The notes: a model not told the origin generated them from the letters alone. DNA of 64,000 nucleotides from Euglena gracilis (GCA_039621445.1 CP154954.1:8310634-8374633); one strand, 5' to 3'; numbered from the stretch's first letter, positions 24,985 to 61,900 are shown. Program-made: numbers and translations.

Positions 24985-24989
24985 AGATT

Positions 24990-28975: not shown

Positions 28976-29164
28976 ATCAGCCAACTCCGGCGAAAAAAGG
29001 CACTAAGCAGAGACTCCTAACCCAACGCGTCACAATCCACACAACACCGCCGGCGAGCAAGGCATGACCTAACAAGGGCAAAGTGCGGAGCCCGAGGTGT
29101 CCCTCGGTGTCCCCTCCTCCCTTCCTGGTCTGCCTCGAGGGACCTCGGCGAACAAGGCATGGCC

Positions 29165-29966: not shown

Positions 29967-31321
29967 CACCTCGGGCTCCGCACTTTGCCCTTGTGAGGCC
30001 ATGCCTTGTTCGCCGGCGGTGTTGTTTGGATCGTTCGTTGTGCGTTGGGTTAGGAGTCCCGCTTAGTGTCTTTTTTCGTCGGAGCTCGCTTATTATTAAT
30101 TTTCCCTTCGACCCAGAAGAAAGGAGCTTCAATACAAGAACCCTGACAATTGGATATCAAAGGATAGGTCAACTAAATTATCCGGAAAGCGACCCTCGTG
30201 CAGAATATAAAATCAAATTTTGTCGACAAATTAAAGATTTAAATGAAATATGGAATTCCAAAGACAAAGAAGAGCACCTGTGGACTACAAGAACTGGCTG
30301 CCGCTGCAGCTGGACGACCTGACAGTGTGGTGCAGTCGTGGAGAATCGTGGCTGTCCCTCCCCTCCCAGAAAAAAATTCTGATCACCCACCCAGCGACAG
30401 CCACGGACTGTGGCAGACAGTGGTCAGAAAACCCCGAAGGACACAAAAGGAAAGACAACTGTCAGGCCACTGCGGCCAAGGCCATGGAGGCCTATATCCC
30501 AGTCACACAACTACATCGTTCAAGCTGGGCCATGGAGGCCACAAAAGCAATGACCACATGGAACAAAGGCCAGGGTGGCCAACAGTATCAAACCCACGGA
30601 GGCCGACTCCACAAGCAGATGCCCAGTGGCAGGGGCAGGACAGGTCCGGAACACCCCCCAACCAGTTCTTCATCACAACCCCTTTCAGGGGCAAAGAAGT
30701 GGCCCCCAGAGGCCCCACAAGATTTTCAATGGGAATGGCGTCGCAGAACAAAGAAAAGTCAATGGTGACTTTCAAAGTTTCAAGAGAATTATTCTCATCC
30801 AGGCCCCCGGACCCCTCATCATGCTCAAGTCCAACAGTTTCCTCAAACCCCTTCAGGGGTAAATGAGTGGCCCCCAGAGGCCCCCCAAGATCTTCATTGG
30901 GCATGGCGTCCCAGAACAAAGACAAGTCCATGGGGTTTGTCAAAATTTCAAAAGGCGGGTGGACTCAACACCAAGAGTGCCAGTGGGGCCAGGATTTTTG
31001 TCAAGGCCACTGGGGCCAGCATTATTCTCATCAACCTGGCCAAGACCAACAATTTCAAGGCCATTGGGGCCATCAATTATCAAAAGGGGGAAACCCCCAG
31101 AAGCTAAAAGGCTGTTCCGGCAAAATGGGAATTCAATATACTGTGGCAGGCCTGGGAGGAAGCCCCAAGAGGGGCAGTGGATGACAAGTTCTTCAACGCC
31201 CATGGCAGGGGCAAACCAAAGCAAGGGGGAGACCCTCAAAGTGGCCTCTACGGAATGTCAATTGACAACCCCAACGACAAAGTGGAGGATCAAAGAGCCT
31301 GTGAGCAGAGCATTCACCCCC
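29967..31321 (+). mobile_element. DIRS copy 2, 5' part (ITR and gag-like), head-to-head with copy 1
   Basis: Starts CACCTCGGGCTCCGCACTTTGCC; colinear with the reverse complement of 29100-27895; breaks at 31321. Confidence 0.85.
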
Positions 31322-32481: not shown

Positions 32482-32912
32482 AGTGTACGTCCCACCCCGG
32501 CTTTTCTACTTATGCTTTCGTCCCGGAAAGCCCGTGGGGGGAGTAACGATAAAATTTGCTTCCCTTTTCCCCTTTTGAATGCAAAGCACACAAGCAGAAA
32601 ATTTGGTGGGACCGCAGTCCCTTAGATGAAAGTGACTTTTGCTCTTTCGAGGTTTGTAAAAGAAAGAAAAAAACTTGTATTCAAATGGGACTTCGTCCTC
32701 AGAATTCTAAAACAGAATTGCAAAGCACCAAACCCAATAACCTTGAATTAGGAACCAGTTACTTTCGCTAAGCTTTCGCTAGCTCTGAGATTCTCTCTTT
32801 GTCTTATGGTTTAACCATGCCACTGTGTACAGCCCGGCCGTAGCCAGCTTGTAGGCCGTAGCCCATTGTATCTGGTACACAGTGCCATGGCAGAATGGCC
32901 GCCTGGTACACA
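32482..32912 (-). repeat. 3' LTR of element A
   Basis: Direct repeat of 53582-54011; PPT GAGGGGGA immediately adjacent (32913-32920). Confidence 0.93.
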
Positions 32913-39594: not shown

Positions 39595-41134
39595 TGTGGC
39601 ATTGGACATGTCCCTACCTTTCAGATAAATTAGGACTGAGTGCGCGCGCTGCACACTGTAAATTCTGTTTTTTCTGTTCAGTCAAACCTCATGAGTTGAT
39701 TGCTGGGCCGTTGGGTCGTGGCCCCCTGGCATATATCTGTACCATGGGACTGACTGGGGATTTGGAGATTTGAGTTTTGCGCTGTGGTTGAAGTTTGAAA
39801 ATTTGAAGTGGAATTGGCCTGCCAATGGGGCGGAAGGCAAAGCCCAAGGCAAAGGCAAAACCCAAGGCGAAGCCGCAGCCAGCCAAACAGGGGGCCCGGG
39901 GTCGGGCGGCAGAAAAGGTGTGGATTGCGAAGAGAGCCGCCACCCCGGCGCCGCCCCTGTTTCACAATCAACTCGCCTGTGACGACCAGTCAGATGACAC
40001 AGTGGAGCATGCTGGACTGGTGCATGCACCAGTGGGACATTCTGGCGCTGGAATTGGTCAACATGTTCAAGATGTACATTCCGGTCATTTGGGCCATGCC
40101 GCAGATGCACATGGGGTGCATGCTGCAGATGCCGCAGATGCACATGGGGTGCATGCTGCAGAGGCCTCACATGCACATGGGGTGCATCTTGGGGGTGGCC
40201 TGACTGGAGATGCAGATGACAGAGGTGTACATGCAATGGCGGCCAGGTCAGGGCAGATGGTGGATGCCCTGGCCCGGCATGCTGAAGTTGGGCATGAGGG
40301 GGGCACGACCCGGCCATGTACAACCGCTCAGGGTTTGGCCACTCAGAAAGCCGGTTGTGCTTCGGCCGCCGAGAAAGGGTCCCCCAGCAGAGCTTAGGCC
40401 GCTGTGGGGACATGCAGCATTGAGCATGAAGGCATTGCGCATTACGACATTGGGCATTCCGACATCGAGGATGACGGCATTGGGAATGTCGACATCGAGG
40501 ATGACGGCATGGGACATGCAGCTGCAGACCCCAACAGTGCTCCGGCCGTTCGGGCGATGGAGATACAAACCGCCAGCCGCGCTGCGGCCGCTGGGGTCCC
40601 TAGGTTCTCCAATGTGGGTGATGGTGATGTACCGATGGAGATCCAAACCCCCAGCTGTGCTTCGGCCGCGGGGGTCCCTGAGTTCTCCGTCCTGGCGTGA
40701 TTGGGGTCCCGCCTGGAGAAGGACGGAAGTGTGATGGATTTTGCTGGGCTGATCTTGGATGCCACTGTGGGGTGAGTGGCGGCCAGCCCAATCTGGGAGG
40801 CCAAGACATCTCCGAAGGACCAGCTGGAAGCAGTGCATCGTCGCCGAGGGCGGAGGCTACGCCGGCGGCAGTGGATGAGTCCATAGCGGAGTCTCGACGA
40901 CTGGCCGTGCGGTACGAGCGAGAAGCCCGAGTTCGACACAGGGATGCGCTGTCGGAGATGAGGCCGCTGACGGAGACGGAGAAGCAAAAGAGGCGGAAGG
41001 ACCGCCTGCTCCACCACCAGGGACGGTGGGAGTGAGGAGGAGTGGCCGAACCGAAGAGGCGGCCCGGGTAACGGGCGAAGAGTCCGCCCCGCCAGCCCTC
41101 CCGTTTAGAGTTGGCCTGCATTTTGGGTTCCCCT

Positions 41135-42210
41135 CCTGGTGGGTTACGACCCCAGGTTGGGGGTGATGCGGGTTTTGGGGAATTACGAGTGACAAATGAC
41201 CCATCTGGTGTGTTTCGACCCCAGGTGGGGGGGGTTATTGTTTCGTATGTTGAGTGTGATAAATGACCCATCTGGTGTGTTTCGACCCAGGTTGGGGGGC
41301 ACATTACTGTTTCCGGCATGAGATGAGATGACCCATCTGGTGTGTTTCGACCCCAGGTTGGGGGGGCACATTACAGTTTTCGGAATGAGATGAGATGACC
41401 CATCTGGTGTGTTTCGACCCCAGTTTGGGGGGTACATTACCATTTTGGGAAGGAGATGAGATGACCCATCTGGTGTGTTTCGACCCCAGGTGGGGGGGTA
41501 CATTACCGTTTTTTGGCCCCTGGTGAGTTACGACCCCAAGGGACGCCTGGCCCGGTGACATTGTTGGTTTGATGGTCGAAGGTGTCCCGTCCTCCCCCTT
41601 GGCTGTAATGCCCTGGTGGGAATGTTGGAGGCCTGCCCTGGAAGTGGTGGGTTTGTTTTGACGGTTCAAGTTTCGACATTGGACATTACCATATTTTGAC
41701 ATTGGACCACGATCGTTGCCTTATCGCCTTTGTTTTTCAGCCTGGAACCCAGTGAGTCTCGACCCTGGGGGTGGGAGGCTTTTAGATTCGGAGAGAGTGC
41801 GAGAGTTTTGTGGGTTCATGGCCCCAGGCCCCTCACCCGCTGAGTTTCGACCGCGGGGTGGGGGGGTATTTCCAGTTTTGAGTTTTCTTTTTTTTCAGAG
41901 AATTCCAACCCGGACCTGTCACCCGCCGAGTTTCGACCGCGGGGGGGGGGGCAGCCTTCTTTTTGATGATGTTCGGGTTGGAGCCTTTCCATTCGAATTC
42001 CATTCATGGGGGGTTTTGGGCCCGAGCCCCCACCCGCTGAGTTTCGACCGCGGGGGGGGGCGTTTTCAGTTTTGGAATTTTCAGTTTTCAGTACAAGGCC
42101 CTGGGGCCCCCGCCCGCCGGTTTCGACCGCGGGGGGGGGGGCAGATTTATGTTTTCGGTGCGCTTTGGCCCCGGTGGCCCCCCAGTTGAGTTTCGACCAC
42201 GGGGTGGGGG
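41135..42210 (+). repeat. Array of ~13 related stem-loops in element B
   Basis: Core TGWGTTTCGACC enclosed by complementary flanks; five ~63-bp tandem units followed by dispersed copies. Confidence 0.85.
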
Positions 42211-42480
42211 GGTGGAGGAGGACATGTCCAACGACCAAGGGAGTCAAGTATGGAGACTGGGTCTCCTTTTGGGAAGGGGAGTGTGGCATTGGACATGTCC
42301 CTACCTTTCAGATAAATTAGGACTGAGTGCGCGCGCTGCACACTGTAAATTCTGTTTTTTCTGTTCAGTCAAACCTCATGAGTTGATTGCTGGGCCGTTG
42401 GGTCGTGGCCCCCTGGCATATATCTGTACCATGGGACTGACTGGGGATTTGGAGATTTGAGTTTTGCGCTGTGGTTGAAG

Positions 42481-43471
42481 TTCCTCTGCATGGATTTTCT
42501 TGAACTTGAACCTTGCAAAGGAACAGATGACGAAATTTACGATTACGTTCTTGTTGTCGTCTGTCGGCTGAGTCGGTACATTGTAGCCATTCCATGCCAC
42601 AAAGCAGGGTTGACAGCACAAGTTTTAGCACAAATGTTTTTAGAAAGATGCATTTGCCTCATGGGTTTACTGAATTGAATCGTGAGTTATCAAGACCATT
42701 TGATTTCTTCTCGATTTTTTACAACTCTTTGCGGTTTACTCGGAATTGAGCAGCATTTTTCTATCATTTATCGTCCAAAAGGCAATGGTCGCGCTGAATC
42801 GGCAGTGAAAGCTGTAGTCAACATGCTACGACTTCAACTGGCCGAATCGCACAATGCCTGGCTACAAGTATTACCCTGGTGTTTGTTTTATATTAACACT
42901 TTACCGGGGGTGGTACTACAATACTCACCGTACAAGATCGTCTTCGGACGTGATCCCCCAGCCATTGGCGACATCCCGTGAGAACGACCTGCTCGTTCTA
43001 GCGTGAGTTGCGAAACATGGTTCTCTGAAGTAGAATCATTGCGCACGGATGTGCAAAAGCGCGTAGTCGCTATACACTTACAAAAACAAAAACAATTCTT
43101 ACAGGATTGCAAATCACCGATATACAACCCAGGTGACCGCGTGTGGGTTAGGAACACTAGAACCCGCATGCAATCCACGAAGTTGGACCCCCTCTGGATC
43201 GGACCATGCGAGATCCTCGATCGGTTGAGTACAAGTGGGCGCTACAAAGTCGCTTTACCCAACGGTGTCGAGGATGTGCACATGGATGACTTTAAACCAT
43301 ACCTGACTCCACCAAACGGTAAAGCCATACCCTGTCTCTACTTCAAACCAAGGTCAAAACTGCCTGAGACAGATGATTTTGTCGTTGACAAAATCCTCGA
43401 CCACAAAGTAGACAGAGGTATACATTACTGGAAAGTACGGTGGAAAGGATATGGTCCCGAAGAGGGCACTT
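42481..43471 (+). pseudogene. Element A integrase core, GPY/F-like region and chromodomain N-part, inverted relative to the rest of A
   Basis: CMDFLEL, YRPKGNGRAE, KLDPLWIGP, FVVDKILDHK..YWKVRWKGYGPEEG. Confidence 0.9.
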
Positions 43472-43632
43472 TGAAACAGGGGCGGCGCCGGGGTGGGGGC
43501 TCTCTTCTCAATCCACAGCTTTTCTGCCGCCCGACCCCGGGCCCCCTGTTTGGCTGGCTTCGGCTTCGCCTTGGGTTTTGCCTTTGCCTTGGGCTTTGCC
43601 TTCCGCCCCATTGGCAGGCCAATTCTACTTCA

Positions 43633-43944
43633 TTTGGTACGGGGAAGAAGTCCATCGTACCAGGGGGGGCTACCTCTGCGCGGATTCACAGCTTGGCAAA
43701 TTTGGCACCGTTGCGAAATTTGTAAACAGCGCTTATACAGACCTTTTTTGGTCAGGGTTGTACAGTACCTGCGACCCACCAAAGAAAGAAGTTTGGGGGC
43801 CCCAGGGTGACCTTGGTTGTGATAACATAAAAGTACGTCATCAACCAAGTCACAGGGTATGCAGTACTGGTAACCGGTACCATTCCAAAAAATCAAACGT
43901 AAAGGCGACAAGGTATAATTCGTAACCAATTCACCATTACGCAA
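43633..43944 (-). pseudogene. Element A integrase zinc-binding (HHCC) domain
   Basis: HNQGHPG...CQICQ. Confidence 0.85.
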
Positions 43945-44064
43945 TCTTTGTACGACAGCATTGTAAAAATCATCTTCGAAAAAAGAGAGGGGATGGAGAT
44001 TCTGATCGCGTGACCCGGCGGGGGCCCGGCATTCTGCCGCGTTGTCATTTTCCCCGTACGGGGG

Positions 44065-45640
44065 CTATTGACATCCGCCGCCAAATCCGCGAGACAGGAA
44101 AATTGTCAAAAGTAGGTTGTCAGCGGCGTCTGCGCGTCTTGCGTATTCGTCGGCTTCGCGACTTCCGTGGAACGTGGCATCACCCTCGTCAGGGTTACCA
44201 GGGTAATGCCAGGGTGCACGTGAAAGTGGGTCTGCGACTTTTTGAGTATGACCTGGTGTGTAAGCTACCACCAGGTTGAATTGACTCAAAAATTCGTGCC
44301 ATCGGCATCCTCGGCCAACTGAGGACACGGCTTTGTTCAAGTCTTCGGTTAGCAGTGTTGGAGAGACTCATGGTCTGTCAACACTAGTATTTGTACGAGT
44401 GAACTGGCGACCCAACTTCGGAATTTTTGTAGGATAAGGACAATGGCATACGTCTCCTTTTCTCGTATGCTCCATTTGACTTGTTTCTCTTCCGTCTTCA
44501 CCTTGTAGCTTTCTGCTGAAGAATGCTACAGGGCGCAGTTCATTGGACGAGTTATGTTGACTCAACACACCGCCGACAGCATAGTCACTGCTGTCCACCT
44601 CAAGTACGTATGGTTTGTACGGGTCGGCAATGTCAAGTACAACGTTGTCCAACATCAGTTGTTTAATTGTCGTTAGTGATTCTCTCATTGTATCATCCCA
44701 TTGTATCTTTGTGTTGTCAGGAGCGCGATTTTTGAGTTGCCGCGTCAGAGGTACCGCGATTTTCGCGAAATCCTTCATGTAAATCGCGTAATACTGCGCT
44801 AAACCCAAAAATCCTTTTAAATGGGTGATTGTGTTGATTTTTTCAGGTGTCCACGTCTTTATAGCTTCGAGTTTGCTTGGAGATGCTCTCCTTTGTCCGT
44901 TACTAAGAATGTGTCCACAAAATTTTATCGTTTCGCGAAACAAATGCATTTTCGCACCTTTGACGAAAAGCAAATGTTTTTGAAATGTTGTCAGTACGGA
45001 ACGGATATCGCGGTAGTGAATATCAAGGATATCACTACCCGAATTTGTAAGTGGAGGCGGTGTGCCTATCAGCACGTCATCAATGTATACCATTGCAAAC
45101 GGTGAGTCTCGCAAAATCCATTGTATCATTCTTTCGAACATGGATGGGCCATTCTTAACACCCATTGGTAACACCGTCCATTGGTAAACTCCACGAGAGG
45201 TTACAAATGCGGTGTATGGTTGTGAGTCAGGGTGTAAGTGCATCTAATGAAAACCACCTTCTAAGTCGAAAATCGACCAGAGGCGGTTTTCCACTTGTTT
45301 TGTAATCAGGTCTTCGATAAGCGGTAACGGAAATGGATCGTCTTTTGTCTGTGAGTTCAAGTATCGGTAATCCAGCACAAGTCTCCACTTCTTCTCTCCA
45401 GAAGCATCGGGAGGCTTGGGTACAACAAAAGCTTGTGAGGTCCACTCGCTTTTGAGGGTATGATCCATTTTCGTTCAATCAGTTTTTTGATCATTGTATT
45501 GAGAGCTTGTTCTCTTTCGCCTGAACAGCGAAAGAGTTTTCGGTGCATGGGCTGTGCACCTTCTTTGAGTTCGATTTTACAGACACCAAAAGGTCCGCGA
45601 ATTGCAGGATCTATGTCATGGGCATAGATAGGATGTTCTA
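44065..45640 (-). pseudogene. Element A reverse transcriptase and RNase H (disrupted)
   Basis: WRLVLDYRYLN, FDLEGGFH, LPMGVKNGP, YIDD, VDSSDYAVGGVLSQ, VADPLSR. Confidence 0.93.
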
Positions 45641-45819
45641 AATCATCACTGAATTCGCGATTGATCTTTGTACATAGTTCTTGTGATTTGGGATGTTGAC
45701 CACCGCTTTCTATCACTGCGGATAGTTGGTATATTTGGTCATTCTGACCTTTATCTCGTAGGAATTTGTCAATGTGGTCTTTTTCCCGTAGGAATTTGGC
45801 AGTGTGGTCGACAGTTCCG

Positions 45820-46165
45820 AATGCATCAAAGAAACAAACACGAAAAACGATTTCTTTCAATGGTGGTAACATGACACCGCAAAAATCTTCAAACAAAGGG
45901 GTATCATTCGGTAAATCCCACCACTGAAAAGTGACATACGTCAATTGTTGGAACCATTCCGCTTCGGGATTTATAGCAATCAGTAGCACACCGCGTGCTT
46001 GATCCCGAAGGATCTTGTCAACGACAAGACGGTTAAGTTTCAGAGGTGGATGTAGCCACAGGACCACATCACCCCAAAACTCATCAAACACATTTGTATG
46101 GCTTGACCAGTAATTGGATAATCGAGAATGTGCTTTGGACGAAAATGTCCATCGACTTCGCGATT
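45820..46165 (-). other. DAM-like N6-adenine methyltransferase domain within gypsy pol
   Basis: VD.FSS..HSRL..YWS...NVF..FW....LWLHPP...LVVDKI..DQARGVLL......WFQQL aligns by eye to the DIRS MT domain (DLFAS..N..L..F...YANPPW..I...L.....LMV.P.W...WWPQL). Confidence 0.7.
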
Positions 46166-47129
46166 TGTGCGATTTTGGAAAACCAGGTTTCCAAAATGCG
46201 GTATTGTCCAAAATTGAACGCATTTCAGATGCGGTTCGCGACAACTGTTGCGGTTTCAGTCCTATGGAGGGTTGAAACACAGTTTACCGAGCCACATCGG
46301 TAATACGTGGTGTCCGAAGACACTTCATCAGGCATTATACCAGGTGTATCAGGTGTATTGTGTAGAGGACAATTGTCGTTGGCATTCTGCCAGTTGTATG
46401 CAGGGACATTGGAGGGGTTGGCATTCTGCCATTCGGGGTCAGAGAGATTGGCTTTCTGCCATTGGACGTCCTGTTGTGCGATTCTCGCGATTCCGAACAG
46501 GGACGCGATTCCGCGTTTGTCCAATTGTTGATGTACTTCAACACACAACGGGTAACAACCCGGTGTGTTGTGTTCTCGTTCAGCGGCCAGGGTAAACTTG
46601 GTACCGGTTCCGGTATCAAGTATCCTCTTGTTGTTGTGTAAAGCGATTAGTTTGGAAGGTTCAACAATACATCCACAGTCGAAATCAGGTTGTGTGGAAA
46701 TTCTCCGGCAATGTGCGCATTGGTAGAAAGTGTCGGTCTGGTAATACCTGTCAGTCACGTGTAGTGTGTTCATGGGGGTGTTGGAAGTTGTAGCTGCTGG
46801 GGGGTGTACAGGGGTGTCCGAAATCGACGCACGTTGTGCAGCTGGGCGGCTACTCGACACCAAATTTGTTCAGGTCTTTGGGCTTTCGCCTTGGAACCCA
46901 GTGAAACGTGGGGGGTTAAGCTACTCGATTCCCCTACCGCATGGGAAACGTGCGGTATAAGTGTGATGGGCAGGGGGGCAGCTTTCTCTTTACCCCTAGG
47001 GTAGGAACCGGTGTTTTCGGTTGTAGAAAATGTTGTGGCCAGGCGGGGGGACATCTGGGGAGATGTCATGGGGGAGAAGTTCGGTGGTGTGGGTTGTGTG
47101 CGTGAAGTAGTGCGCAAACCGAGGGAGGG

Positions 47130-47708
47130 GCAATCCACAATAAGGCGGTTCTGAACCAAGAACGGAAAACCCAAAATTACGTCAGAGCCGCGAATACCCG
47201 ATTCGTAACTCCAGGTACCCAGAAAATTTTGTATGTGCGGGGGGTGTGAGTGGTGCTTGGGGATGATGGGGAGGAGTATGTCCAAAAAGCATCCCAAGTC
47301 ACCACCACACATGGGGCTGTTGTCAGCAGTCATAATTTTGATGGGGTACTTGGCTTTCACCAAGAGGGAGTTGGGAATTAATCACGTTCGAAAGAGAAGG
47401 GGGATTCGACACCCTGTGTTGACCAAAATTTTGCATTTGGTAGAAAAATTTTGTGTTCGGATTTCCGCTTGGACTAAAAGTTCCATGGGGGGTACGCGAA
47501 GTGCAGGATCCGGTGTAAAATTGTTGTCTCTCCAACTATTCCAGGATCCTGTTCCTACTTTGCTCAGCATCCCAGGCAGAAATTTGGAGTGGGGGGTGGG
47601 GGACCCGAAAATTTTCCGGGCACCGACCAAAAAGGCAGATGGGCAGGGTAAGTAAGGTTGATCAGGTCCTACTTCCGTCTGTTCATCAGCCCAGAGGTCC
47701 GTGCCCAC
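47130..47708 (-). pseudogene. Element A aspartic protease
   Basis: ILVNTGC (ILVDTGC in element C) and DVILGFPFL. Confidence 0.85.
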
Positions 47709-49170
47709 AGACCTCGGGCTCCCCTCCTCAAGTCCGAATCAGCACTTCGCCTGTTTATCGTTTTCTTGTGTGAGTAGATAGCGCGCAATGCGCGGACCGC
47801 ATTGCGGTCATCCTCCAACGAGGATTCGGAGTTCTCATCCCCCTCCCTGCCTGAAGCCGGGGTTCCCTCCTCCAAAGAGGAGATTTTGAACCCGACCTTG
47901 TGTTTGTTGTTGTGTTTTGTATCACTGTGGTGACGTTGGTTCGGGCGGGGAGAGCGAGACTGGAACATTTGGAGGAATGGTGGTTGTGTGATCCACAAAG
48001 GGAACACTTTTGTCGGTTTTGTTACTGTTGTCAGTTTTGTGATGGGCTTTCACCCCTTGGAGGTCTTGGTGAACGGAATCCCGTTCGACCACGGTCGTTG
48101 TAACCCGGTTTCCCGGATGACGATCTCGAAGAAGATGATCCACTTCGCGAACGTGATCGCGATGAGTCGCGATTTGTATCACGTTTGTAAGGGGGTCGGG
48201 GTGATCGACCACGAGGTGCGTGATTGCGTCCGCGATCGCGGAACGGTGATCGGGACCTTTGTCGATATCCCGAAGATTGTGATTGTCCAGATTTGTGCGA
48301 ATATCCGGAGGAGCGCGAGCTCTGCGAGGATTGTGAACCCCTTGGTCTCTGATACCGCTTTCGCGTATCAGGGTGGGGGCAGTCACGGGACGTATGTCCC
48401 GCTTTGTTGCACAAAAAGCAAGTTTTGTCAGAAGATTGGTCAGATGAGCGCGGATAGCGCGTTTTTGTATCTCCCCTTGGGGAGTTTGTATGTTTACCAA
48501 ATCCCCTTGGGGATTTTGGTGATTTTGGAGAAGAAGCCTTTTGTAGGGCACTTACCGTACCGCTAGGGAGACCAGCGGTAGGGTGGTGGGTGTAAGCCGA
48601 TTGTATCTGTCCCAAAAGTTGTGAGGTTTTTATTTGTTTGGAAACATAGTTCCATCGTTGTTCAAGTGTGAGTTTGTTGTCCGCGAGTTCCTCGCGGTGG
48701 ATGTCTTTGATAATTGTAGGAATGAAATGGAGGAGAACCGCATCGAATTGTTCCTTCGTTTGGTTCTCTCCCAGTTCATCAACTTCAGAAGCCAATCCCA
48801 ACCATTTGGAATACCAAAGGTCGATTGACTTCCATTTACGGTCACTGGGCGCGAATTGTCGCAATTTCTTCTCCAGCGTAATTCGCGAAATGAGGCTTGA
48901 ACAGGTTGACGCATATTGGTCAACCAGTTCCTCAAAAGTAATCCGATTCCGGATCACAAGTTGTCGGGCGCGTTCTTTTTCTTCCTTGGGGAGGCAATCA
49001 ATGAATTACATCTTGATTACCTCAGGGTTCCCGTCTTGGGTTGGACCCTTCAAGTCCCAGTCCTAGTCGTCGCGCCAAAATTGTTTCCAAGTTGTGGGAT
49101 AGCCGTCCCATGGTGGCATACCCTTGTTGGCAATTGTAATGTACCTTTGAAATTGCGTTGTGGACCGTGA
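47669..49170 (-). pseudogene. Element A gag core with two CCHC zinc knuckles and an RS-rich linker
   Basis: CFLCNKAGHTSRDC and CSLCGSHNHHSSKC; capsid-like helical region in ORF 48031..48957. Confidence 0.85.
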
Positions 49171-49999: not shown

Positions 50000-52900
50000 C
50001 ATCGCAATTCCGCGGTTGTATGGTTGTGGTTCGCGATTCCGCGATTCGGATTGTAAAGGGTCGCGATTCCGCGATTCGGGTTGTTGGCAAATACCAGGGG
50101 GGGTAGGAATTCCTGTTGTTCACCCGCAAATCGGGGAACCGCGGTAAATTCCGTGTTTCGCATTCGCGATCCATGGCCAATACCCGGGGTAGGGGTATTG
50201 CTCATACCGCGAATCAGTCCCGATTCGCGAATTTCCTGTTGTAAAACCGGAGGATTCACGGTTTTTGTGGTAAAAACCGGTTCCTCATCCGAAGATTCAC
50301 CCTTAGGGGGTGAATCTTACGTTGTGGTATAAACGGGCGATTGTAATCGCGACTGTAGGCCTGTTCACGACCATGTGCATCCGTGGATGCTTGTAGGGCA
50401 TGCGCACCCGAAGTTGCTGGTAGGTGTGCGCATACTGCGCTTTTGGAAGGATTGGCATCCAACGAATCGCGAATTTGATGCACAAAGTCGCGAGTTGGAC
50501 GTAGGGCATCCGAAGATGCTTCGGTTGATGCGCGAAAAGTGCGTTGTGAGCTGGAAGTTGCATTTTGACCACCGAAAACACGGTTTTCAGGGGCAAAGTG
50601 CGGGGGGTTGCGGGATTTTGCATGAATCTCGTCCAAACTCGATGCAAAATCTTGGATACTTTGTTCCAATGAACCAACCACTTGGAAAAGGTCCGAAATT
50701 CGTTCAACATCACCCTGCAAACGCTTAATACGTTTGCGGAATGATGGTAACTCATCCAAAAGTGGTAATTTGTCAACAATGGAGTCAAAATCCGCGGAAA
50801 GCTTTGGAAAAGTGGTGTCCAAGAATTGGACCCGATTAACCAAAGTTTCCATTGCGGTTGTAAGGGTGTTCAACCGATTCTTGGTTTGTGGGGTTGTGGT
50901 ACCCAACGTGGGTTTAGGTACCCCTACCGCATTTTCAGCGGTTTTGTCGTCCATTATTGTAGAAAGTCGGTTCTCCAACACCGAAATTTGTCGTTTTAGT
51001 GTGAGAACTTGTTGGGTGACCGAATTTTCGGTCCTCTTCAACGTTTCACAAAATTCTTGTAAGTTTTCCTGATTTTTCGCAAGCATTTGGTCGTAAAATG
51101 TACGAAAATCAAGGGGTAGTTCGACTTCGCGAACCGTTTGTCCATCCGAGGATGGTTGGAGTCCGGAGACCCTTATAGAAAGTGTTTGTACGCGTTTTTG
51201 TAAATGGGAAGTGGTGGATTGTAAGGTTTTGTGTTGGGTATTCAAATACGCAAGTGCGGTTTCAATGCCGGTGACATCCGGAATTGATTTTTGAATACCG
51301 TTGCACCGTTTGTGCAAATCCGCAAACGCGGATTCGATCTTGTTCACATCCGCTTGTAACTGATTTTGAAAATCGGTTACAGTGCATCGTAATGCTCCCA
51401 TACTGGGATTTTTGGTGGAAATTTCTGCAAAGCGGCGTTGTAAGTCCGCAATTGCAGTTTGTAGTCCCGAAACATCCGCACAAGCGGTTTTCAGGTCTGC
51501 AAACGCAATTTGGAGGTCCGCATTCGCGGTTTGGATGGTAGTTATGACCGTTTCTCGGTCTTGGAGTTCCGCATTCACAGTTTGTAAGCTAAGAATAACC
51601 GCATCGCGGGATTGGAGTTCCGCCGTAGCGGTTTGTAGCGCATTGGAAGCAGTTTCAAGTTTTTTTTATATCGTTTTGCCACTTTTCATGGAGGAAATCT
51701 TGCCGATGGGCGATCTCCGCCACTTGAGTGTGCAATGTGGTCAAATTGTGGGAAACTTCACCGCATTTGCAGGAAGTTTGTTCCAAACGAGCAATCCGCT
51801 CTTCCAGTTGTTGCGCAAAAGCTCTTTGTACATAGTTTTCGCGTATTTGTATAAAATTTTGATGAAAACTCGCGTTGTCATTACCCAAACACAAAATGTG
51901 TTCTTGGGAGTGTTGTACAACATTGGACAGGGTTGAGAAGTTGAGAAGTGCTCATTTGAGACATATGAGCCAAGTTCCGCACCCGTAGGCGCTTTATCCC
52001 GTTGTTGTAGGCGGGACTGCATATCTTGCATTGTATAAGAAACGTTTTCCAGTTGTGTGAACAATTGTTGTACATTTTGTTGTAAATGTGAAAATTTTGC
52101 GTTATTCCGTGATTCCGCGGTGTGGAGGGTCTCTTGTACCTGTTGGAAGTTGTGTACCAAGGTGTTGCGCAAAAATGCGTCAAAACCTTGGTGGATGTTC
52201 TGGAGTTCCATGGTAGTGGAGTTGAAATTCTTTTGGCAAATTGTCCAAATTCTTGGACATATTCCCAAATGAAATCCAGCTTGACGAAAACGGCCTTGTG
52301 ACTGTCTTCATCAAATTGTAGGACTTGGTTCAGTGTTTTAGCGCAATTTTGGACACATGCTTCGATGTGTCGAAATTTCTGTTGTAGTGGGTGGTTCTCC
52401 GGTAAATTTGCGACTACGCGCTCAACGGTATTACTGGAGAACGAATCCCGGTCTTCCTCGGGGTCATTGTCCATGGGAACAATGACACCGGCAGTGTCCG
52501 GGACCACCAACCGCATTTCAGGCGGACCAAGGTAGTTCTGGTATTTCTCCAAATTGTGGAGGGGGGGCAAGTCCCGAATGGGGCTTACCAGTGGTAGGGC
52601 CGGGGGGGTTGGAAAAAAAAGGTGTTTCCAACCCGTCCTCGGAAGGGGGGGGCTCTCTAGGCAATTGGGTGCCAAAAGGCACTAATTGCCAGTCCCGTTC
52701 GGGCATTCTGCCCACTTGTGAGTGAGACTCCGCAGAAGCGGAGGGGGTCCGTAGACCCATTGTAGGGTTATGTTGCACCGCAAGTGCGGCTATTTTAACG
52801 GTGGGTCCGCGAATCCGGGTTGGGTCCGTAGACCCTTGGAGGGGGAGGGGACCGCCAAAGCGGCTTGGGTCCGAAGACCCTTGGAGGGGGGGGGGCACCG

Positions 52901-53282
52901 CCAAAGCGGCTTGTGTCCGAAAACCCTTGTAGGGGGTGGGGCACCGCAAAAGCGGCTTGTGTCCGAAGACCCTGGGAGGGGGGGGGGCACCGCCGAAGCG
53001 GCTTGGGTCCGAAGACCCTTGGAGGGGGGGGCACCGCCGAAGCGGCTTGTTGTAGGGGGGGGGGCACCGCTAATGCGGTTTGGGTTCGAAAACCCAGTTG
53101 TGGGGGGGGGGTACCGCCGAAGCGGCTTGGGCGTCCGCCCCTTGTACGGAAACTTTTTCCACCGCAGAAGCGGCTTGGGCATCCACCCCTTGTGGATAAA
53201 AATTTTCTGTCGCTAAAGCGACTTGGGCATCCGCCCCTTGTAAGGAAAAATTTCCTGTCGCCGTAGCGACTTCGTCTGCATT
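50000..53282 (-). pseudogene. Element A coiled-coil ORF or Gag N-terminal extension (frameshifted)
   Basis: Chain of ORFs 52518-52949, 51881-52675, 51741-52268 and 50256-51578 with heptad-like L/Q/E repeats; homologous to element C 61450-63100. Confidence 0.65.
52730..53270 (-). repeat. ~46-48-bp tandem repeat built from paired hairpins, in the leader of element A
   Basis: Alternating CCGC-NNNN-GCGG and GGGTC-NNNN-GACCC units. Confidence 0.85.
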
Positions 53283-53581: not shown

Positions 53582-54011
53582 AGTGTACGTCCCACCCTGG
53601 CTTTTCTACTTATGCTTTCTTCCCGAAAAGCCCGTGGGGGGAGTAACAATAAAATTTGCTTCCCTTTTCCCCTTTTGAATGCAAAGCACACAAGCAGAAG
53701 AATTGGTGGGACCGCAGTCCCTTTTATGAAAGTGACTTTTGCTCTTTCGAGGTTTGTAAATGAAAGAAATAAAACCTGTATTCAAATGGGTCTTCGCCCT
53801 CAGAATTCTAAGCAGATTTGCACAGCACCAAACCCAATGACCTTGAATTAGGAACCAGTTACTTTCGCTAAGCTTTCACTAGCTCTGAGATTCTCTCTTT
53901 GTCTTATGGTTTAACCATGCCACTGTGTACAGCCCGGCCGTAGCCAGCTTGTAGGCCGTAGCCCATTGTATCTGGACACAGTGCCATGGCAGAATGGCTG
54001 CCTGGTACACA
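53582..54011 (-). repeat. 5' LTR of element A
   Basis: Sense termini TGTGTAC...GTACACT; PBS abuts it. Confidence 0.93.
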
Positions 54012-55977
54012 ACTTTCCCTTTCCACGTCACATAAATTTCCTGTGCCTTGGCAGATTTTCAGCCAAAACGGTCGGATATGGGTGACATCCTCCGTACGGG
54101 ACAACTTCCCCTGGTGCCACAGATTTTTGCTGTGGTTTTCACATTTTTTTCATCCAATTTTTGTCGGAGATGGGTGGAATCCTCCGTACGAGAAATTTTT
54201 CCATTTTGCCCCGCAGGCTGGGAGTGGGCACGGATCAGCCTTTATGTCTGGTGGAGGAGAAACGGGAACTGTCCTCCTCACACAATTTTTAGTCCCCCCT
54301 GTGGAAATGGAGATGGAGAGGGGAAACAAAGATGCTCGGGAAGAACGTGCAAGGAGGAGAGTGCACGAAATGATTCAGTTTGGGGTGCTGGGCGAATAAT
54401 GCTTTCAAATTCACTGGGCAGAGTTGGAAAAAACTTCAGACCAACCAGATCCAAAAATGGAAACCGCTTTGGTAAAAAGTGGTCAAAATTGAGCGGGATT
54501 CCAGCCCAATTTAACTTTGGACAACAGCGCCAAAAGGCAAGAACTTTTTGACGAGAAACTACCAGTTTGGGTTTGAAAAACTCAAATCAAACACCGTTTC
54601 AGGCAGTTCTGGTGAAAATTCAAGTGTTTGTAGAAAGTTACACTTTGGTTATGGGGATTGAGCGAAGCTATTCTCAATTGGAGGGTCTCAGAAATTTCAA
54701 ACGGACACAGTCCTAGTTTCTTGCGGAAGGGGGTCAAAGTGGACAGTTTTTTCCCCCTGCCCAGATCACTGCCCACAAATTTTGCTTTCACACCTGGAAA
54801 GGGAGACCCAAAACCCCGGCGTCGCTGTGGTGGCGGCGTCCCGGGGCCCACTCCCCACACACCGCTGCGGTGGCGGTACATGGGGGCCCAGCAGCAGCCA
54901 GCACAACGAGCACAACTCCACCCAGGAGCAATGTGTTGGGACAGGGGAGAGGGACTGCCACCACCTATTTCTTCTTTTGCCACACTTAATAAACATTGCA
55001 CGTCAACCAGCTGTTTTGTCACAGCCTTGTCTCTCTCAAGCAGGGACACGTAATATTTCTCAAAAAGGGTGTCAAGGTCAAAACACCAACCTCGGACAGT
55101 TTTGTCAATTTGTGCAACTCGTGATTCAATCCTCTGACGCCAAACAGTCAGAGGAAGTCCCTCAAGATGACTGGGCTCACGCTGGTTGAATCCTTCCTCA
55201 AAATTTTCACTGTCAGAATCCTCAAAAACAGCAGGATGGTCATCTGTTTCCGTTTCACCATTCAGAGTTGAAGAACCTCATTCAAGATTGGAACAGATTC
55301 TGCTAACAATGTTGGGGGGTTCTGATTTGTCATCAACCGAAAGTAAAAATTCTTCACTGACAGAGTCAGTGAAGCAACCTCTGCGTACCATGTTGGGGGG
55401 TCCGGAGGATCCTCGCCGCCTGGGGGGGCTGCTTTCGCTGGGGCGACAAATTCCTTTTTCTGGCACTGGTGGGCTCAGGCCAGGGCCTTTGGCAAGTTGG
55501 GCCCGGTTTTCAAACAAATCAACAGGCGGTAATGGGGGTGAGGTGTGCCCCCCCGACCCAGGTCCCCCTGTCTCCCCGCGTAGGATCGTTTTTAGCCTCC
55601 ACTGTTTTGCCTTTTCGAACATTTGGATCAAAAGGTGAACAAAGAAAAAACCAACCCTCCTACTTGGAAGCACACAGCAGAGCACAACAAATCTGGATGG
55701 AGAGAGTTGGTGAGTACCTTTGAGTTCAGGTGTTGAGTGGGAAAAATAATACGGAAATGAATGCTTGATTTCCTTTGATAATTCAATTGATCTTCAATTA
55801 TTTCAATTCTCAAATGACTTTTCTGCTTTTCTGCTTCTCAAATCGAACTCTCAAATTCTTCCTGTAATTTGCTGGGTTTACAATTCCACTCGCGTGGCGG
55901 TTGACTTGCTCTGGTTATTCTTACCGGGGGTTTTTGGGAATTTTTGGGAAATTTTTGGCTGCCGACGCCAGCGCCAG
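54012..55977 (-). mobile_element. Decayed element fragment, right part of the sequence interrupted by element A
   Basis: Joins 31322-32481 through the ACTTT TSD; broken ORFs, identity uncertain. Confidence 0.35.
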
Positions 55978-58900
55978 CCGACATAATTCTCTCTAGAGCT
56001 TCACAAATATCTGTGTCCCATTTAATTTTTGTATTCTCGGGTGCACGATTTTTGAGCTGCCTCGTTAGAGGTATCGCAATTTTCGCGAAATTTTTCATGT
56101 AAGGCGCGTAGTATTGGGCAAATCCAAAAAATCCCTTCAAATGGGTGATGGTCTTGATCACCTCAGGTGTCCATTCCTTGCTAGGCGCCGCTCGGCGTTG
56201 GCCATTATTAAGAATGTGACCACAAAACATTATAGTTTAGCGAAACAAGTGCATTTTAACACCTTTGACAAAAATTATAAGCTTAAGAAATGCGGTTTAT
56301 ACCGCGCGAACATCACGATAATGAATATCGAGAATATTCTCGTGTGTATTCGCTGAAGAAGGGGGGTACCAACCAAAACATCATCAATGAATACCAGCGC
56401 AAATGGTAAATCCCGTAAGACCCATTGGATCAATCTCCGAAACATTGCTGGTTCATTCATAACGCCCATTGGTAAAACCGTCGATTGGTAAACACCTCTG
56501 GATGGTACAAAAGATGTATAGGCCTGCGAATCGGGATCCAGATGCATTTGGTGGAAACCATCCTCCAGGTCGAAAACTGACCACAAGCGGTTATCCGCCT
56601 GTTTTGTGATGAGGTCCTCTATGAGAGGTAGCGGGAATGGGTCATCCTTAGCTTGTGAGTTTAACTACCGATAATCCAGTACCAGCCTCCACTTTTTCTA
56701 ACCTAACGGGTCTGGGGCCTTAGGGACCACAAAACCTTGGGAGGTCCATTCACTTTTGGAAGGGATGATCCACTTCCGCGCTATGAGCTTTTCAATCATT
56801 TCATTGAGAGCTAGCTCTCTTTCTCCTGAACAACAGAAAAATTTCCGATGCATTGGCTTTGTGCCTTCTTTAAGCTCAATCTTACAAAAACGGGATCTAT
56901 ATCGCAAGTGTAAACAGGATTCTCCAAAGCACCAGAATATTCGCCACTGACACGCGTACAAAATTCTGCTGAATTGGGGTGCTGTCCTGCACTATCAATG
57001 ACACCGGGAACCTGTTTATGGGTCATATAAACCATAGGTGGGGCTGAACGGTGATGCCTATCGGCAGTATGGAGAAAAGCCGTATCGGCCCCCACACGCT
57101 CGGTATGATCCAACACAATAACATTCGGGGAGGTATTTAGGGAAACATTAAAAGCATTAAAGAAACAAACGCGAAAAATGATTTCTTGAAAAGATGGTAA
57201 CACTACTCCACGGAAATCCTCGAATAGAGGAACATCGTTTGGCAGGTCCCACCAGTAAAAGGTGACATAAGTCAAATGTTGAAACCATTCCGTTTCGAGA
57301 TTCACAGGAACAAGTAATGTGCCTCGTGCCTGATCTCAAAAAATATCATCTACAACAAGCAGGATACGTTTCAGGGGGGTGCATCCATAAGATTGTGTCT
57401 GCCGAAAACTTATCAAAAGCGTTAGAATGTTGCGACGAATGTCGCGGTAATCGCGAATGCCCGTTGGAAGAGAATGCATCAATTTCAAATCAAAGGAATC
57501 CCCCATATCGGCATTTTTTGAAGAAAAAATGTTTCAAAATTCGATATTAACCAAACCGAAAAGCATTCCAGGTGTCCTTGGTGTACTTGCAAATCTGCTC
57601 CACATCCTGAAGGGGGGGAAAAAACTGTAAAACAGAACAACGGAATTGTGAATTATCCACACACATCTCCATAGGACTCGACCAAGGGGTGGGCATGGGT
57701 GGGTTGGGCATATACCCAGTCATCGGTGATACGCGATAGAGCGGAATGCACGATGCGCAGAATTGGCGCTATGTGCGGGCAGCGTGATATGCGCAGGGAG
57801 TGTGGAGAGCGCCATAAGTGCACGGGAGGCACTATGCGCAAAACTGAAAAGAGAGGCTATGCCTTTGCACTGTAGTGCTCGATTCACATCCGCGAATTGC
57901 GAAGGACTGCTAGGTAAATGTTGAAATGTGATAAACTACCACGTGTACCGCTGGGTGTACAACCCTTTGTACCCTAGCTATCTACATTTTGGTTATTTTT
58001 TAAATCAGTACCAACTGTACCACTACCAAGTGTAACGGTTTGGGTAGGGGATGAAATTTCCTGGTTGCGGGATCAAATTGGATTAGTTTGGGAAATTCAA
58101 AAAGACACCCACAATCAACATCATGGTAGGCAGAAATTCTCCGACAGTGAGTACATTGGTAGGAAGGTTGGTGCTTGTGGTGCGCGTTTGTGTGGGTGTC
58201 AGTGCATAAGTTGGTGTCGGTTGGGGTAGCTGTTGGGGGGTGTACAGGGGTGTCTGCAGTCGACACACCTGGTGGAAAACGGAAAAATTGTGCAGCCGGC
58301 CGGCTACTCGACACCGTAATTACTTCAGGCATTTGGGCTTTCGCGTCGGAACCAGCGAAACGTGCGGGGTTAAGCTACTAGCTTTCCCTACTGCATGTGA
58401 AACGAGCGGTAAAAGTGCTGTGGGTAGGGGGGCAGCTTTCTATTTACCCCTAGGGTAGAAAACGGTGTCTTCGGTTGTGGGAACGTTATGGAAATGCGGG
58501 GGGACGTCCTGGATGACGTCACAGTGAACAAGTTTGGGGGGTTTGGTGTGTGTGCGGAGGGAAGTGCGCAAACCGTGCGAAGGACAATCCACCACCAATC
58601 GGGGTTGTCATAGGAATAGAAAACCCAGTATGACATCTGACCCGGCGATATTCGCCTCGAAAGCCCAAGTGCCCAGAAATTTTTGGAATTGTGGGGAGTG
58701 TGTGTGGTGCTTCAGGATAACGGGTAGGACTATGTCCAAAATGCATCCCAAGTCACCACCGCACATGGGGCTGTTGTCAGAGGCCATAATTTTGATGCGA
58801 TTCTTGGCATGAACCAAGACGGTGGTGGGTATAAATCCTTTGCGGAAAAGAAGGGGGATTCGACACCCTGTGTCGACTAAAATTTTGGCTTGTGCACAAA

Positions 58901-61900
58901 CATTTTGGGTTTTGATTTTCGCTAGGACCAAAAGTTCCATGGGAGGTACGCAAAGCGAAGGGTCGGGTGTAAAATTGTTGTCGCGCCAACTGGTTCATGA
59001 CCCTTTGCTTACTTTGCTCATCATTTCAAGCAAAAATTTGGCGCGGGGAGTGGCGGACCCGAAAATTTTCCCGGTAAACCCCCCCAAATAATAACCCCCC
59101 CCGGTTTATTTCTTAGACACCAGAATTAAGGGTCCAGGGGGGTTTATTTTTTTGGGGGGGTTATTATTTGGGGAAAAATTTCGAAGGCAAAATTGGCCCG
59201 AAAGCCCTTCCACAGCCCCCAATGGTCACTTTTTTGGCATTTTTGGGCTTTTTGAAAATTAGGTGCTTTTTTGGCGTATTCTCCGCACCAGTTTGATCCA
59301 TTTTTGTGATTTTTTTGCAACATTCCAGCAAATTTTTTACTCTTTTTTCTCTGCCGGATTTATTACTTGGGGAGGTTATTATTTGGGCAAAATTTTCGAA
59401 GGCAAAAAATGGCCCGAAAACCCCTCCACAGGCCCCAATGGTCACTTTTTTTCTTTTTTGGGCTTTTTTGAAATTGGGTGATTTTTTAGCACATTTTCTG
59501 CACGAAGTTTTCCTTTTTTTGTGATTTTCGGCAACATTTGTGTTAATTTTTGACTCTGTTTTTCTTTGGCTTCACACCCGCCGGAGGGGGGGTTTATTAT
59601 TTGGGCGGCCGAAGTCGGTCCTCAGGGGTATTGTTTGGGGGGGTTCTTATTTGGGGAGGGTTTATTATTTCGGGGGGGGGGATTATTTGGGGAGGTTTTA
59701 TTACTAAGGGGGGTTGCCCACCACAAAGACCGATGGGCAGGGGGGGCAGGGGTGATCAGTTCCTACCTCCATCTGTTCATCAGCCCAGAGGTCCGTGCAC
59801 TCAGGCCTCGCGCTCCCCTACTCCATATCGGAGTCGGCCTTTTTCCTAGAGTAAATTGCGCGTATCGCATGAATCGTATTGCTGTCTTTCGCCAACTCAT
59901 CCTCGGTGCTCTCATCCCCCTCCCTGCCCGAATACAGTTTTTTTTCCTCGATGGAGGATATTTTGAAACAAACCCGCTGCCTATTGGCAGAACCGCGATT
60001 GGAATCACGACGACCCTGGATAGGGTGAGGAGAACGGGAACGGGGGCACTTGTATGAGTGGTGGTCTTTAGACCCACAAACGGAGCAACGGTTTTGCGAT
60101 TGCGAGTGCCTTTTGGCATCGTTGCGACGCGGGGAGCGGATATCCGCTCGACCGCGGTCGATCGCGAAGAGGATGATCCACTTCGCGATCGAGATCACGA
60201 AGAATCGCCATTCGCATCCCGATTGCGGGTAGGGGGTGGGGTGGCCGACCTCGCGGTGTGAAACCCCGTCCGCTACTGCAGTGGGCTGAACGGAACCGTG
60301 GTCTACCGTCACTCCATCGGTATCCCGACCGCTGGGAACGCGCAGATCGCGAAGAACGTGAACTCCCAGAAGAGAGGGATCCCCGTGGGCTCTTAATGCG
60401 CTTTCGCGCTTGGAGGTTCGGACATTCGCGAGACACATGTCCCGATTGGTTACACAAAAAAAACACACTTTGTCCGAAACTTGATCAGAAGAGCGTGAAT
60501 AGCACGGTTTGGAACCTCGTGTGGGGGATTTGGGGTTTGAGCGCGGACAGAGTGTTTTAGAATCACTCGATGCGGTGGGGTGGTGTTGGTATTCTGATTC
60601 AATGTGTCCCAGAAGTTGTGATAACTTCATTTGTTCGGAAACATAATTACATCTCTCATCGAGAGTCAAAATGTGTCCCCAGTTCCTCGCGGTGAATTTC
60701 CTTGATGTGTTTGAGGATGTAGTGCAGTAATACTGCATGAAATTGTTCTTTTATTTGCTTTTCCCCTAACTCATCAATTTCGGCTGCCAACCCGAGCCAT
60801 TTGGAGTACCAGAAGTCTATCGACTTCCAGTTGCGGTCCGGTGGGGGGCAACTTGCCGCCACTTGTTTTCCATACTGATTCTGGAAACCAATATGAGCAT
60901 GATGAAGAATATTGCTCAACTAAATCCTCAAAAGAAATGCGTCCGCGAATGACACATTGTCTGGCGCGTTCTTTTTCTTCACTTTGGAGGGAATCAATAA
61001 ACTCCATCTCGATTACCTCCGGGTTGTCATCCTGGATTCGTCCCTTCAAATCCAAACAGTATTCCAGTCGCGGAAAAAATTTTTCCATGTGGTGGGGTCA
61101 CCGTCCCGTTGGGGCTTCACCTTGTTCGCGATGGCGATGGTGCCTTTGAAATCTTTCTGAGAGACTCGTGGCGATTCGGTGGTATTCATGGGTGGGTGGA
61201 CGCGGGTGCAAAATCACGCCATGTGCAAGTACTCCGGTGGTTGCACCAAGGGTTTTGTTCGTCTGCGAATGCGCATGTAACATACCACTCAGTGTACATT
61301 AAGTACCGTGCAGGTTTGGGGAATCGCGAATGCGCGAATGGTGATGCGGTTGTGCATGTGGGGGTGAGGTGTCACATGGTTGCACCATCGGTGCTACTAA
61401 GCGAATTTGGGAGGTATGACGAATACCTCGTGTGGGGATGCGGCTGATACCGCGAATTAGTTCGGATTCCCGAATCTCTTAATTTAAGAGGGTGGTGGGC
61501 CTGGTTTTCACTTGAAAACCTGACTCATCATCCGAAAGCTCGTCCATTGGATAATGCTAAGGTGGGAACCACCGCATGAGTGGGAACGCGGTGTTTCCTG
61601 TGGACTCGAGGACTGGTCCGCGAATAGCGGTTTTTGAGCTGGAAGATGCGGCAAGTGTGCCAATCATAGCCGATTGCGGATTGTGGTGAATGGAACACAG
61701 TATTGCTTGAATTTGGACCAAATTTGTTGCAAACTCATGCACACTTTGCTCCAAATGGTCAACAACCTGCCAATTGTCGGTTATCGGGCCCACATCCTCC
61801 TGCAAACGCTTAATCCGCCTACGGTATGAGGGTAACTCATCCAAAAGCGGTATTTCGTGGGAAATCGACGGGAAATCTTACGAAGTTTCACCAAACCCAG

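Follow-up and report, generated by a model that had tools for sequence, protein, structure and literature searches.

The window analysed here, a stretch of 64,000 nucleotides of Euglena gracilis DNA (GCA_039621445.1 CP154954.1:8310634-8374633) read 5' to 3' on one strand, contains two copies, A and C, of a Ty3/gypsy chromovirus, which are both decayed, both dead and both on the minus strand, together with a DIRS element. The main coding features of the three elements are located as follows.

48034-49005, minus strand: copy A gag, with a CCHC zinc knuckle at 48379-48420
47157-47426, minus strand: copy A protease, from LVNTGC (47409-47426) to VILGFPFL (47157-47180)
45819-46211, minus strand: copy A Dam-like methyltransferase-fold domain, residues ~25-155 of ORF 45357-46283
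44065-45243, minus strand: copy A RT and RNase H, with YIDD at 45070-45087
43633-44064, minus strand: copy A H2C2 zinc-binding domain of integrase, in an ORF that ends abruptly near 43630
42382-43722, plus strand: copy A inverted tail, with integrase core (rve), SH3 and chromodomain (43378-43513)
58611-58994, minus strand: copy C protease, with LVDTGC at 58863-58880
57150-57480, minus strand: copy C Dam-like domain, with LWMHPP at 57373-57390
55841-56664, minus strand: copy C RT fragments, with FIDD at 56374-56391
24593-29142, minus strand: DIRS element, with inverted repeats 24593-24746 / 28977-29142 (82% identity)
25918-26355, minus strand: DIRS MT (Dam) domain, residues 482-627 of ORF 25846-27798, with the canonical NPPW

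From high to low coordinates, copy A encodes gag, protease (PR), a spacer with a Cys4 motif, the Dam-like domain, RT and RNase H, and the zinc domain of integrase. NTG replaces DTG in its protease, in which an in-frame TGA is found at 47382-47384, and at least three frameshifts fall among the PR, spacer, Dam and RT ORFs. The rve, SH3 and chromodomain segments are on the plus strand (Chromo PF00385, E 2.3e-5, at 43378-43513), and since by reading they continue the C-terminus of P0003, an intact ORF of 1208 aa on another contig, the tail of copy A is inverted. This inversion is either a genuine rearrangement or an assembly artefact. Copy C (~55.8-63 kb) is colinear with copy A, with 64-76% nucleotide identity over the aligned blocks, and the domain region (45820-46159 versus 57151-57486, repeat family D3) is 69.7% identical. 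A search for LTRs revealed no direct repeat pair around A or C (40-64 kb); these are rearranged or truncated copies, whose ends may be missing. The Ty3/gypsy chromovirus order PR-RT-RNase H-DDE integrase was found in the ORFs of copy A, in P0003 and in a 1677-aa relative, P0179, and a C-terminal chromodomain was found on the tail of copy A and in P0179. Neither A nor C is DIRS1-like, as an H2C2/rve integrase is present and Dam lies upstream of RT.

Several other features of the window were recorded. Upstream of gag in copy A is a coiled-coil ORF of 469 aa, and 50259-51665 and 51884-52681 (minus strand) hold 5' ORFs; their counterpart in copy C is at 61617-62992 (minus strand), where the coiled-coil ORF has 35% amino acid identity to that of A over 262 residues, and a further 5' ORF common to A and C is about 36% identical. 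It may be that the element carries additional ORFs at its 5' end, or that its 5' region is very long. Near the tail of copy A, 39595-39795 and 42282-42482 are a 201-nt duplicate with 100% identity, and 39804-39964 versus 43632-43472 is a 161-nt inverted repeat with 96.9% identity. The elements are flanked by tandem repeats rich in G runs (52795-53272 and 41286-42213), whose periods are 46-48 nt and about 67 nt, and a separate 432-nt repeat is found at 32482-32912 and 53582-54011 (95% identity). In the DIRS element, an 830-aa ORF (25238-27727, minus strand) with no Pfam match at E ≤ 1 overlaps the RT-Dam ORF and is presumably the DIRS recombinase ORF; inverted matches between 27890-29109 and 29957-31321, within 24593-31321, suggest a second, head-to-head partial DIRS copy. 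The host gene IFT52 (8237-17454, plus strand) has short GC-rich exons, one of which ends at a GT donor, and introns of several kb; an IFT52 exon shares 99% identity with the EukProt record EG_transcript_9433, whose EG_ prefix denotes the Euglena gracilis transcriptome, and 93% with a protein of Eutreptiella gymnastica, which makes the host a euglenid. The first 6 kb (3-6126), in which very long ORFs of up to 775 aa occur in several frames on both strands with weak DUF6306 matches only, looks like long internally repetitive sequence.

The chromovirus is very abundant, as 15,303 contigs of the DNA run X1 match 3 kb of the element with at least 85% identity. Contigs of the metatranscriptome run X20 and of three runs guessed to be RNA cover most of the stretch, domain included; they were not taken as expression, because they are mostly less than 95% identical and may derive from DNA.

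Common to copies A and C is a domain of ~130 aa between protease and RT, in the place where the preliminary description had put it, and it is in frame at the same place in P0003. Its short motifs, and a cysteine motif upstream of it, are located as follows.

46119-46145, minus strand: copy A first motif, FSSKAHSRL, which reads (I/V)DAFSSKAHSRL in the family and DAFAS..N..L in the wider family
46041-46052, minus strand: copy A motif IV, H-P-P-L (CAT CCA CCT CTG), immediately following the predicted strand beta4 (VLWL)
46669-46719, minus strand: copy A Cys4 motif, CAHCRRISTQPDFDCGC, in the PR-Dam spacer
58105-58155, minus strand: copy C Cys4 motif, downstream of the copy C protease

In copy A, ORF 45357-46283 (minus strand) contains the motif string WTFSSKAHSRLSNYWSSHTNVFDEFWGDVVLWLHPPLKLNRLVVDKILRDQARGVLLIAINPEAEWFQQL. 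Copy C reads DAFSSNGHSRL...NAFDKF...LWMHPP, followed by a 1-nt frameshift immediately 3' of HPP and then by VVDDIF, a stop and DQARGTLLVPVNLETEWFQHL, with the in-frame stop 12 codons after the frameshift (57336-57338). The motif string that the preliminary description attributed to both copies is thus present in A and C on the minus strand, with the exception of 'DAF' in copy A, which reads RSRWTFSS: a break at ~46147 disrupts the N-terminal helix and 'DAF' upstream. Contigs of the DNA run X1 depart from the window at this position (46147) into LQLEIDAFSS by hand translation, as in P0003, and since both retain IDAFSS the loss of 'DAF' is private to copy A. The earlier reading of motif IV as HPPL was correct for A and P0003, and for C as far as HPP, directly after which the frameshift falls. 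The His codon is CAT in A and CAC in C, a synonymous difference; it (46050-46052) is absent from the 40 listed of 385 differences to the DNA run, by which agreement is not proven.

The Cys4 motif, with the consensus (F/L)xCxxCxR(I/V)(S/T)xQP(D/N)(F/Y)DCGC, precedes the Dam domain by 110-180 residues. Besides A and C, it is carried by P0003, P0005, P0007, P0010, P0011, P0013 and P0074, that is by 7 of the 40 hits with at least 120 upstream residues, compared with a mean of 0.02 after shuffling. Six of these proteins come from the sub-clade of the window and one, P0074, is outside the tree. The motif is possibly a zinc knuckle that forms a pair with the Dam-like domain.

By direct comparison, the window family itself scores below the gathering score of the Pfam Dam family PF05869 (28.1 bits). 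Copy A reached 12.2 bits (E 0.14) and the whole P0003 protein 19.6 bits, with Dam at 312-383 (E 7.8e-4). The P0003 domain alone gave the best score of the family, 24.2 bits, and its E of 3e-5 against 24,736 models amounts to roughly 1e-9 per comparison. BLASTP of the copy A ORF against the DIRS ORF gave nothing significant, the biologically correct alignment having an E of 21. Against the PDB, phmmer returned only RT matches, which come from the C-terminal part of the ORF, and the A1 profile returned no hits at E ≤ 10. In the ESM Atlas, clusters scoring 0.93-0.94 were obtained, one with PF05869 on 14% of its members, and no useful taxa.

The relatives of the domain give a clearer picture. A HMMER search with the 141-aa window domain among 1.84 billion representatives identified 168 proteins at E ≤ 1e-3, 61 of them at E ≤ 1e-10, and when 32 hits were scanned with Pfam, Dam was found at E ≤ 0.01 in 28 and with at least 28.1 bits in 14. 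In the A1 alignment, 36 of the 46 rows match Pfam Dam at E ≤ 1e-3 (best 2.6e-12). Kinship to the MT domain of the neighbouring DIRS element, which the preliminary description had proposed by eye, was borne out by hhalign, as the A1 profile aligns with residues 482-627 of the DIRS ORF over 132 columns (probability 94.6%, E 6.7e-8). With 168 proteins at E ≤ 1e-3 and this DIRS match, the resemblance is well above chance, and since the relatives match PF05869, homology to Dam is established despite the sub-threshold scores of the family itself.

Structure prediction points the same way. The AlphaFold2 model (A1; pLDDT 94.6, pTM 0.87) shows the Rossmann-like fold of class I SAM methyltransferases, and motif IV follows strand beta4, HPP being at positions 58-60 after the strand 54-57. 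The top PDB match by Foldseek is PCIF1/CAPAM (6irw, E 1.3e-3, TMq 0.66), with further methyltransferases of class I ranking next. VIA-align, a structural search independent of Foldseek, gave Z scores of 10.5 for PCIF1 (6irx; rmsd 3.1, 128 aligned), 9.1 for METTL5, 8.7 for T4 Dam, 8.4 for TaqI and 8.2 for EcoDam; 20 chains have Z of at least 8, and all 20 listed are methyltransferases. As modelled, the fold is a compact class I SAM-methyltransferase core.

A full-text literature search found one report of Dam domains in non-DIRS LTR elements, that of Fernandez-Moreno et al. (bioRxiv, May 2026; 10.64898/2026.05.21.726589), who describe 'DAM-LTRs' as repeated Ty3/gypsy captures of DIRS-derived DAM. 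Among these are a clade of DAM-chromoviruses from Chlorophyta and, in Euglena, a DAM-LTR/DIRS group with chromodomains. The combination that defines a DAM-LTR, Dam and a Ty3/gypsy-type RT in one ORF, was found in P0003 and P0179. P0003, which is 93% identical over the domain region and has the domain in frame, shows the order Dam (312-383), RVT_1 (549-720), RNase H and integrase Zn domain; a search for longer homologous proteins with the domain region yielded one match among 82 candidates. P0179, from a close cluster, has the order Dam - RT - RH - IN - SH3 - Chromo, the latter with an E of 1.2e-9 at 1616-1651. Among the 32 hits scanned with Pfam, Dam is upstream of RVT_1 in nine, with a protease-like match (RVP/Peptidase_A3) upstream of Dam in three, and the DIRS order RT-RNase H-Dam was seen in two. 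In a phmmer comparison of 151 hits, Dam is upstream of a gypsy-like RT in 15 and RT upstream of Dam in three, the other 133 being without RT and too short to tell the order. Copia-type RVT_2 adjoins Dam in two relatives, P0109 and P0130; the order integrase - Dam - RT in P0109 agrees with a clade of the preprint in which DAM is between integrase and RT (Fernandez-Moreno et al., 2026). A scan of metagenome contigs with the P0003 domain gave 78 pattern matches, none of which was confirmed by tblastn. The cluster records of 10 close hits, all on single ENA or JGI contigs, were uninformative as to name, nine having none and P0006 only 'hypothetical protein'.

A quick tree was built from 93 domain rows, from which stretches of less than 95 residues and P0095, a false WD40 hit, were excluded. 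The window family is nested in it among PR-Dam-RT elements, far from the DIRS domain of the window, which sits on an end branch of 2.9. The domain was not acquired recently from the neighbouring DIRS element. The distance also bears on the reading of the locus as a chimera, whether produced by nesting of a DIRS fragment within a gypsy element or by faulty assembly. Such a reading could draw on the presence of a DIRS element in the same window, on the inverted tail of copy A and on the caution expressed for nested insertions and assembly artefacts in E. gracilis (Fernandez-Moreno et al., 2026). However, position and frame context are shared by two copies with ~30% nucleotide divergence, the arrangement recurs in P0003 on another contig and in the 15 hits whose Dam precedes a gypsy-like RT, and the domain is flanked by neither a DIRS RT nor a recombinase, so that the probability left to a chimera is next to negligible. 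A Dam-family domain that is integral to the gypsy pol is, in contrast, almost certain.

Between copies A and C, dN/dS over the Dam domain is 0.094 (pN/pS 0.26; 106 codons, Nei-Gojobori), compared with 0.054 for RT (173 codons), 0.38 for PR (189 codons) and 0.77 for the PR-Dam spacer (198 codons), the ratios being computed in the frame of A and codons with gaps or stops being skipped. The same Dam alignment read in the wrong frames gave pN/pS of 0.86 and 1.63. These ratios come from two decayed copies only, with saturated dS (pS 0.71), and post-insertion decay can only raise them. The Dam-like domain is thus very probably under selection. The inference of the preliminary description that a methyltransferase module is retained across this Ty3/gypsy family has withstood both refutations that it had named, lack of a Rossmann-fold methyltransferase match and absence or lack of constraint of the segment, given the in-frame domain of P0003, the dN/dS of 0.09 and the match of the predicted fold to PCIF1 (Z 10.5) and T4 Dam (8.7).

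One might still regard the domain as a functionless relic heading for loss, whose degenerate motif reflects decay, inasmuch as copies A and C are both dead, motif IV is non-canonical and odd tetrads are seen in many related hits. This is very improbable in view of the contrast between Dam (0.09) and spacer (0.77) with wrong-frame controls near or above 1, the synonymous difference between the His codons of A and C, the in-frame domain in ORFs of 1208 aa and, in the relative, 1677 aa, a fold predicted at pLDDT 94.6, and the very high copy number of the family. Purifying selection appears about as strong on the domain as on RT, which argues that the domain would be used in the life cycle of the element.

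What use this might be depends on how the catalytic motif is read. The tetrad (D/N/S)-P-P-(Y/F/W) is absent from A, C and P0003, and the closest relatives carry NPP(I/V/L). A and P0003 form a pair (support 99) within a clade of 17 rows (support 97), in which 11 rows have NPP, three HPP, and one each HPM, NPH and YPP, with a fourth residue that is mostly I, V or L. Within the 17-row clade, then, the His of motif IV is a derived state, and loss of the aromatic residue came before it. Among other clades, one of 12 rows has His throughout and one of eight rows mostly Cys (seven of eight), and the starred branches of the tree force at least two origins of HPP. The second conserved Asn (DAFAS..N) is likewise His in most rows of the window's clade. 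On the other hand, the first motif retains its D in 97 of 104 aligned hits and its F in 100 of 104. In 131 aligned stretches, the first three positions of motif IV are NPP in 67, HPP in 19, CPP in 10 and NAP in eight, and the canonical [NDS]PP[FYW] was found in 49 of the 129 hits with all four positions aligned. These counts, made on predicted proteins of which some probably stem from decayed copies, describe the neighbourhood of the window and not all TE DAMs, because the sample is skewed to relatives of a non-canonical query.

The tetrad (D/N/S)PP(Y/F/W) is generally required for catalysis, and METTL14, with the tetrad EPPL, is regarded as inactive. By analogy with such degenerate MT-A70 partners, the replaced tetrad would impair methyl transfer; with HPPL in motif IV and the second conserved Asn now His, methyl transfer would no longer be efficient. 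By this motif reasoning, we lean slightly towards a domain that is catalytically impaired or non-catalytic.

The principal alternative is that the domain, HPPL notwithstanding, is an active N6-adenine methyltransferase that methylates the cDNA or the RNA:DNA intermediate, so that insertions are 6mA-marked and treated as permissive chromatin. This marking model is the one proposed for DAM-LTRs, which in E. gracilis were reported to carry 6mA at their insertions more often than other LTRs do (Fernandez-Moreno et al., 2026). The RT-like constraint would fit an enzyme with an unusual tetrad equally well, the high-confidence structure prediction shows a full class I methyltransferase fold, the first motif retains its D and F (97 and 100 of 104), and His could in principle hydrogen-bond the adenine N6. 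Nevertheless, motif IV has neither Asn, Asp or Ser nor an aromatic residue, the second conserved Asn is now His, and the changes N to H, N to C and P to A recur across clades, suggesting that catalysis is not the selected trait. In addition, representative TE DAMs expressed in dam-deficient E. coli gave no gain in 6mA (Fernandez-Moreno et al., 2026), and the A/C family may not be among the DAM-LTRs of that study. An active enzyme is decidedly possible, if on the doubtful side.

The reading that we favour, with about evenly balanced confidence, is that of a module which is selected but catalytically impaired, and which would have a binding or adaptor role without efficient methyl transfer. The pol of the A/C family reads PR - Cys4 motif - Dam-like domain - RT - RNase H - integrase - chromodomain. 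Its Dam-like domain belongs to the retrotransposon 'eukaryotic DAM' lineage, shared with the DIRS MT and ultimately of phage or bacterial Dam origin (PF05869), and has been passed on vertically among numerous elements of the PR-Dam-RT type. The domain is translated with Pol and would presumably be present in the particle or in the pre-integration complex. Its role might be to bind nucleic acid, SAM or a host 6mA writer, or to serve as an adaptor for one of them, instead of writing 6mA. Cooperation with the chromodomain, which the preliminary description had raised, is pure speculation.

A bolder extension of this binding reading, which we put forward tentatively and regard as rather unlikely as a whole, concerns the entire chromovirus Dam clade with DAFSS.AH.RL, (N/H)PP(I/V/L) and an upstream knuckle CX2CX11-12CXC. 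That clade would have abandoned methyl transfer, become a strongly selected pseudo-methyltransferase and escaped the DAM-LTR census, because its scores are below standard HMM thresholds. Its domain might bind adenine or 6mA nucleic acid, or dock a host 6mA writer onto the pre-integration complex.

The novelty implied for a Dam domain in gypsy pol is reduced, since DAM-carrying Ty3/gypsy elements, including those with chromodomains and those of Euglena, are already described (Fernandez-Moreno et al., 2026). That screen used hmmsearch at E ≤ 1e-5, a threshold that the A/C family is estimated to fail above about 8,000 sequences, and for this reason the family may be absent from the published set. 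With a sub-cut-off Pfam score and no Asn-Pro-Pro triplet, it is best described as a divergent DAM-LTR variant, and strict-threshold HMM screens undercount DAM-bearing elements.

The idea of a retrotransposon-borne adenine methyltransferase that exploits host 6mA chromatin dates back only a few months, and what chiefly weakens it is the lack of any TE-borne DAM with demonstrated activity. A family in which the fold is kept under RT-like constraint with both key tetrad residues replaced bears on the question of catalysis by TE DAMs. Replacements by H, C or A at the first two tetrad positions recur in neighbouring clades, which suggests that binding or recruitment, and not catalysis, may be what is selected. 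The variants NPPF, NPPI and HPPL constitute a natural comparison set.

The DAM-LTRs are among the known systems closest to the A/C family. Both have a Ty3/gypsy-type pol with a DIRS-related Dam, a C-terminal chromodomain and a euglenid host, and in both the domain is shorter than bacterial Dam and consists of a five-strand sheet with flanking helices. They differ in the catalytic motif, which is His-Pro-Pro followed by Leu in the A/C family and the triplet Asn-Pro-Pro in almost all DAMs of the preprint, and in the upstream Cys4 motif, of which the available preprint text makes no mention (Fernandez-Moreno et al., 2026). No DNMT was seen in the A/C family, which is thus not an 'EpiLTR'. With the MT of DIRS1/PAT elements, the domain shares homology and the motif order DxFAS..N, DAF, (N)PP(F/W), W..P.W...W; in contrast, the DIRS domain follows RT-RNase H and has NPPW or NPPF, whereas that of A/C precedes RT, in an element with a DDE integrase, and has HPPL. 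The available text of the Chlamydomonas v6 paper mentions an MT domain in a DIRS-derived gene only, and not in gypsy elements.

With respect to PF05869 Dam, the relatives reach the gathering score (14 of 32) and cover profile positions ~20-110, including the NPPY region, while the first ~20 and last ~60 positions are unmatched and neither the catalytic Asn nor the aromatic residue is retained. PCIF1/CAPAM (6irw, 6irx) is the best structural match of the A1 model; sequence identity is 9-12%, PCIF1 is a large enzyme of the cell that acts on RNA and includes a helical domain, and a shared fold shows no shared substrate. Catalytically dead partners of adenine methyltransferases, such as METTL14, serve as an analogy only; no active partner subunit is indicated for the A/C domain. 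They resemble it in having a methyltransferase fold with a degenerate, Leu-ending tetrad, which is kept for binding or scaffolding.
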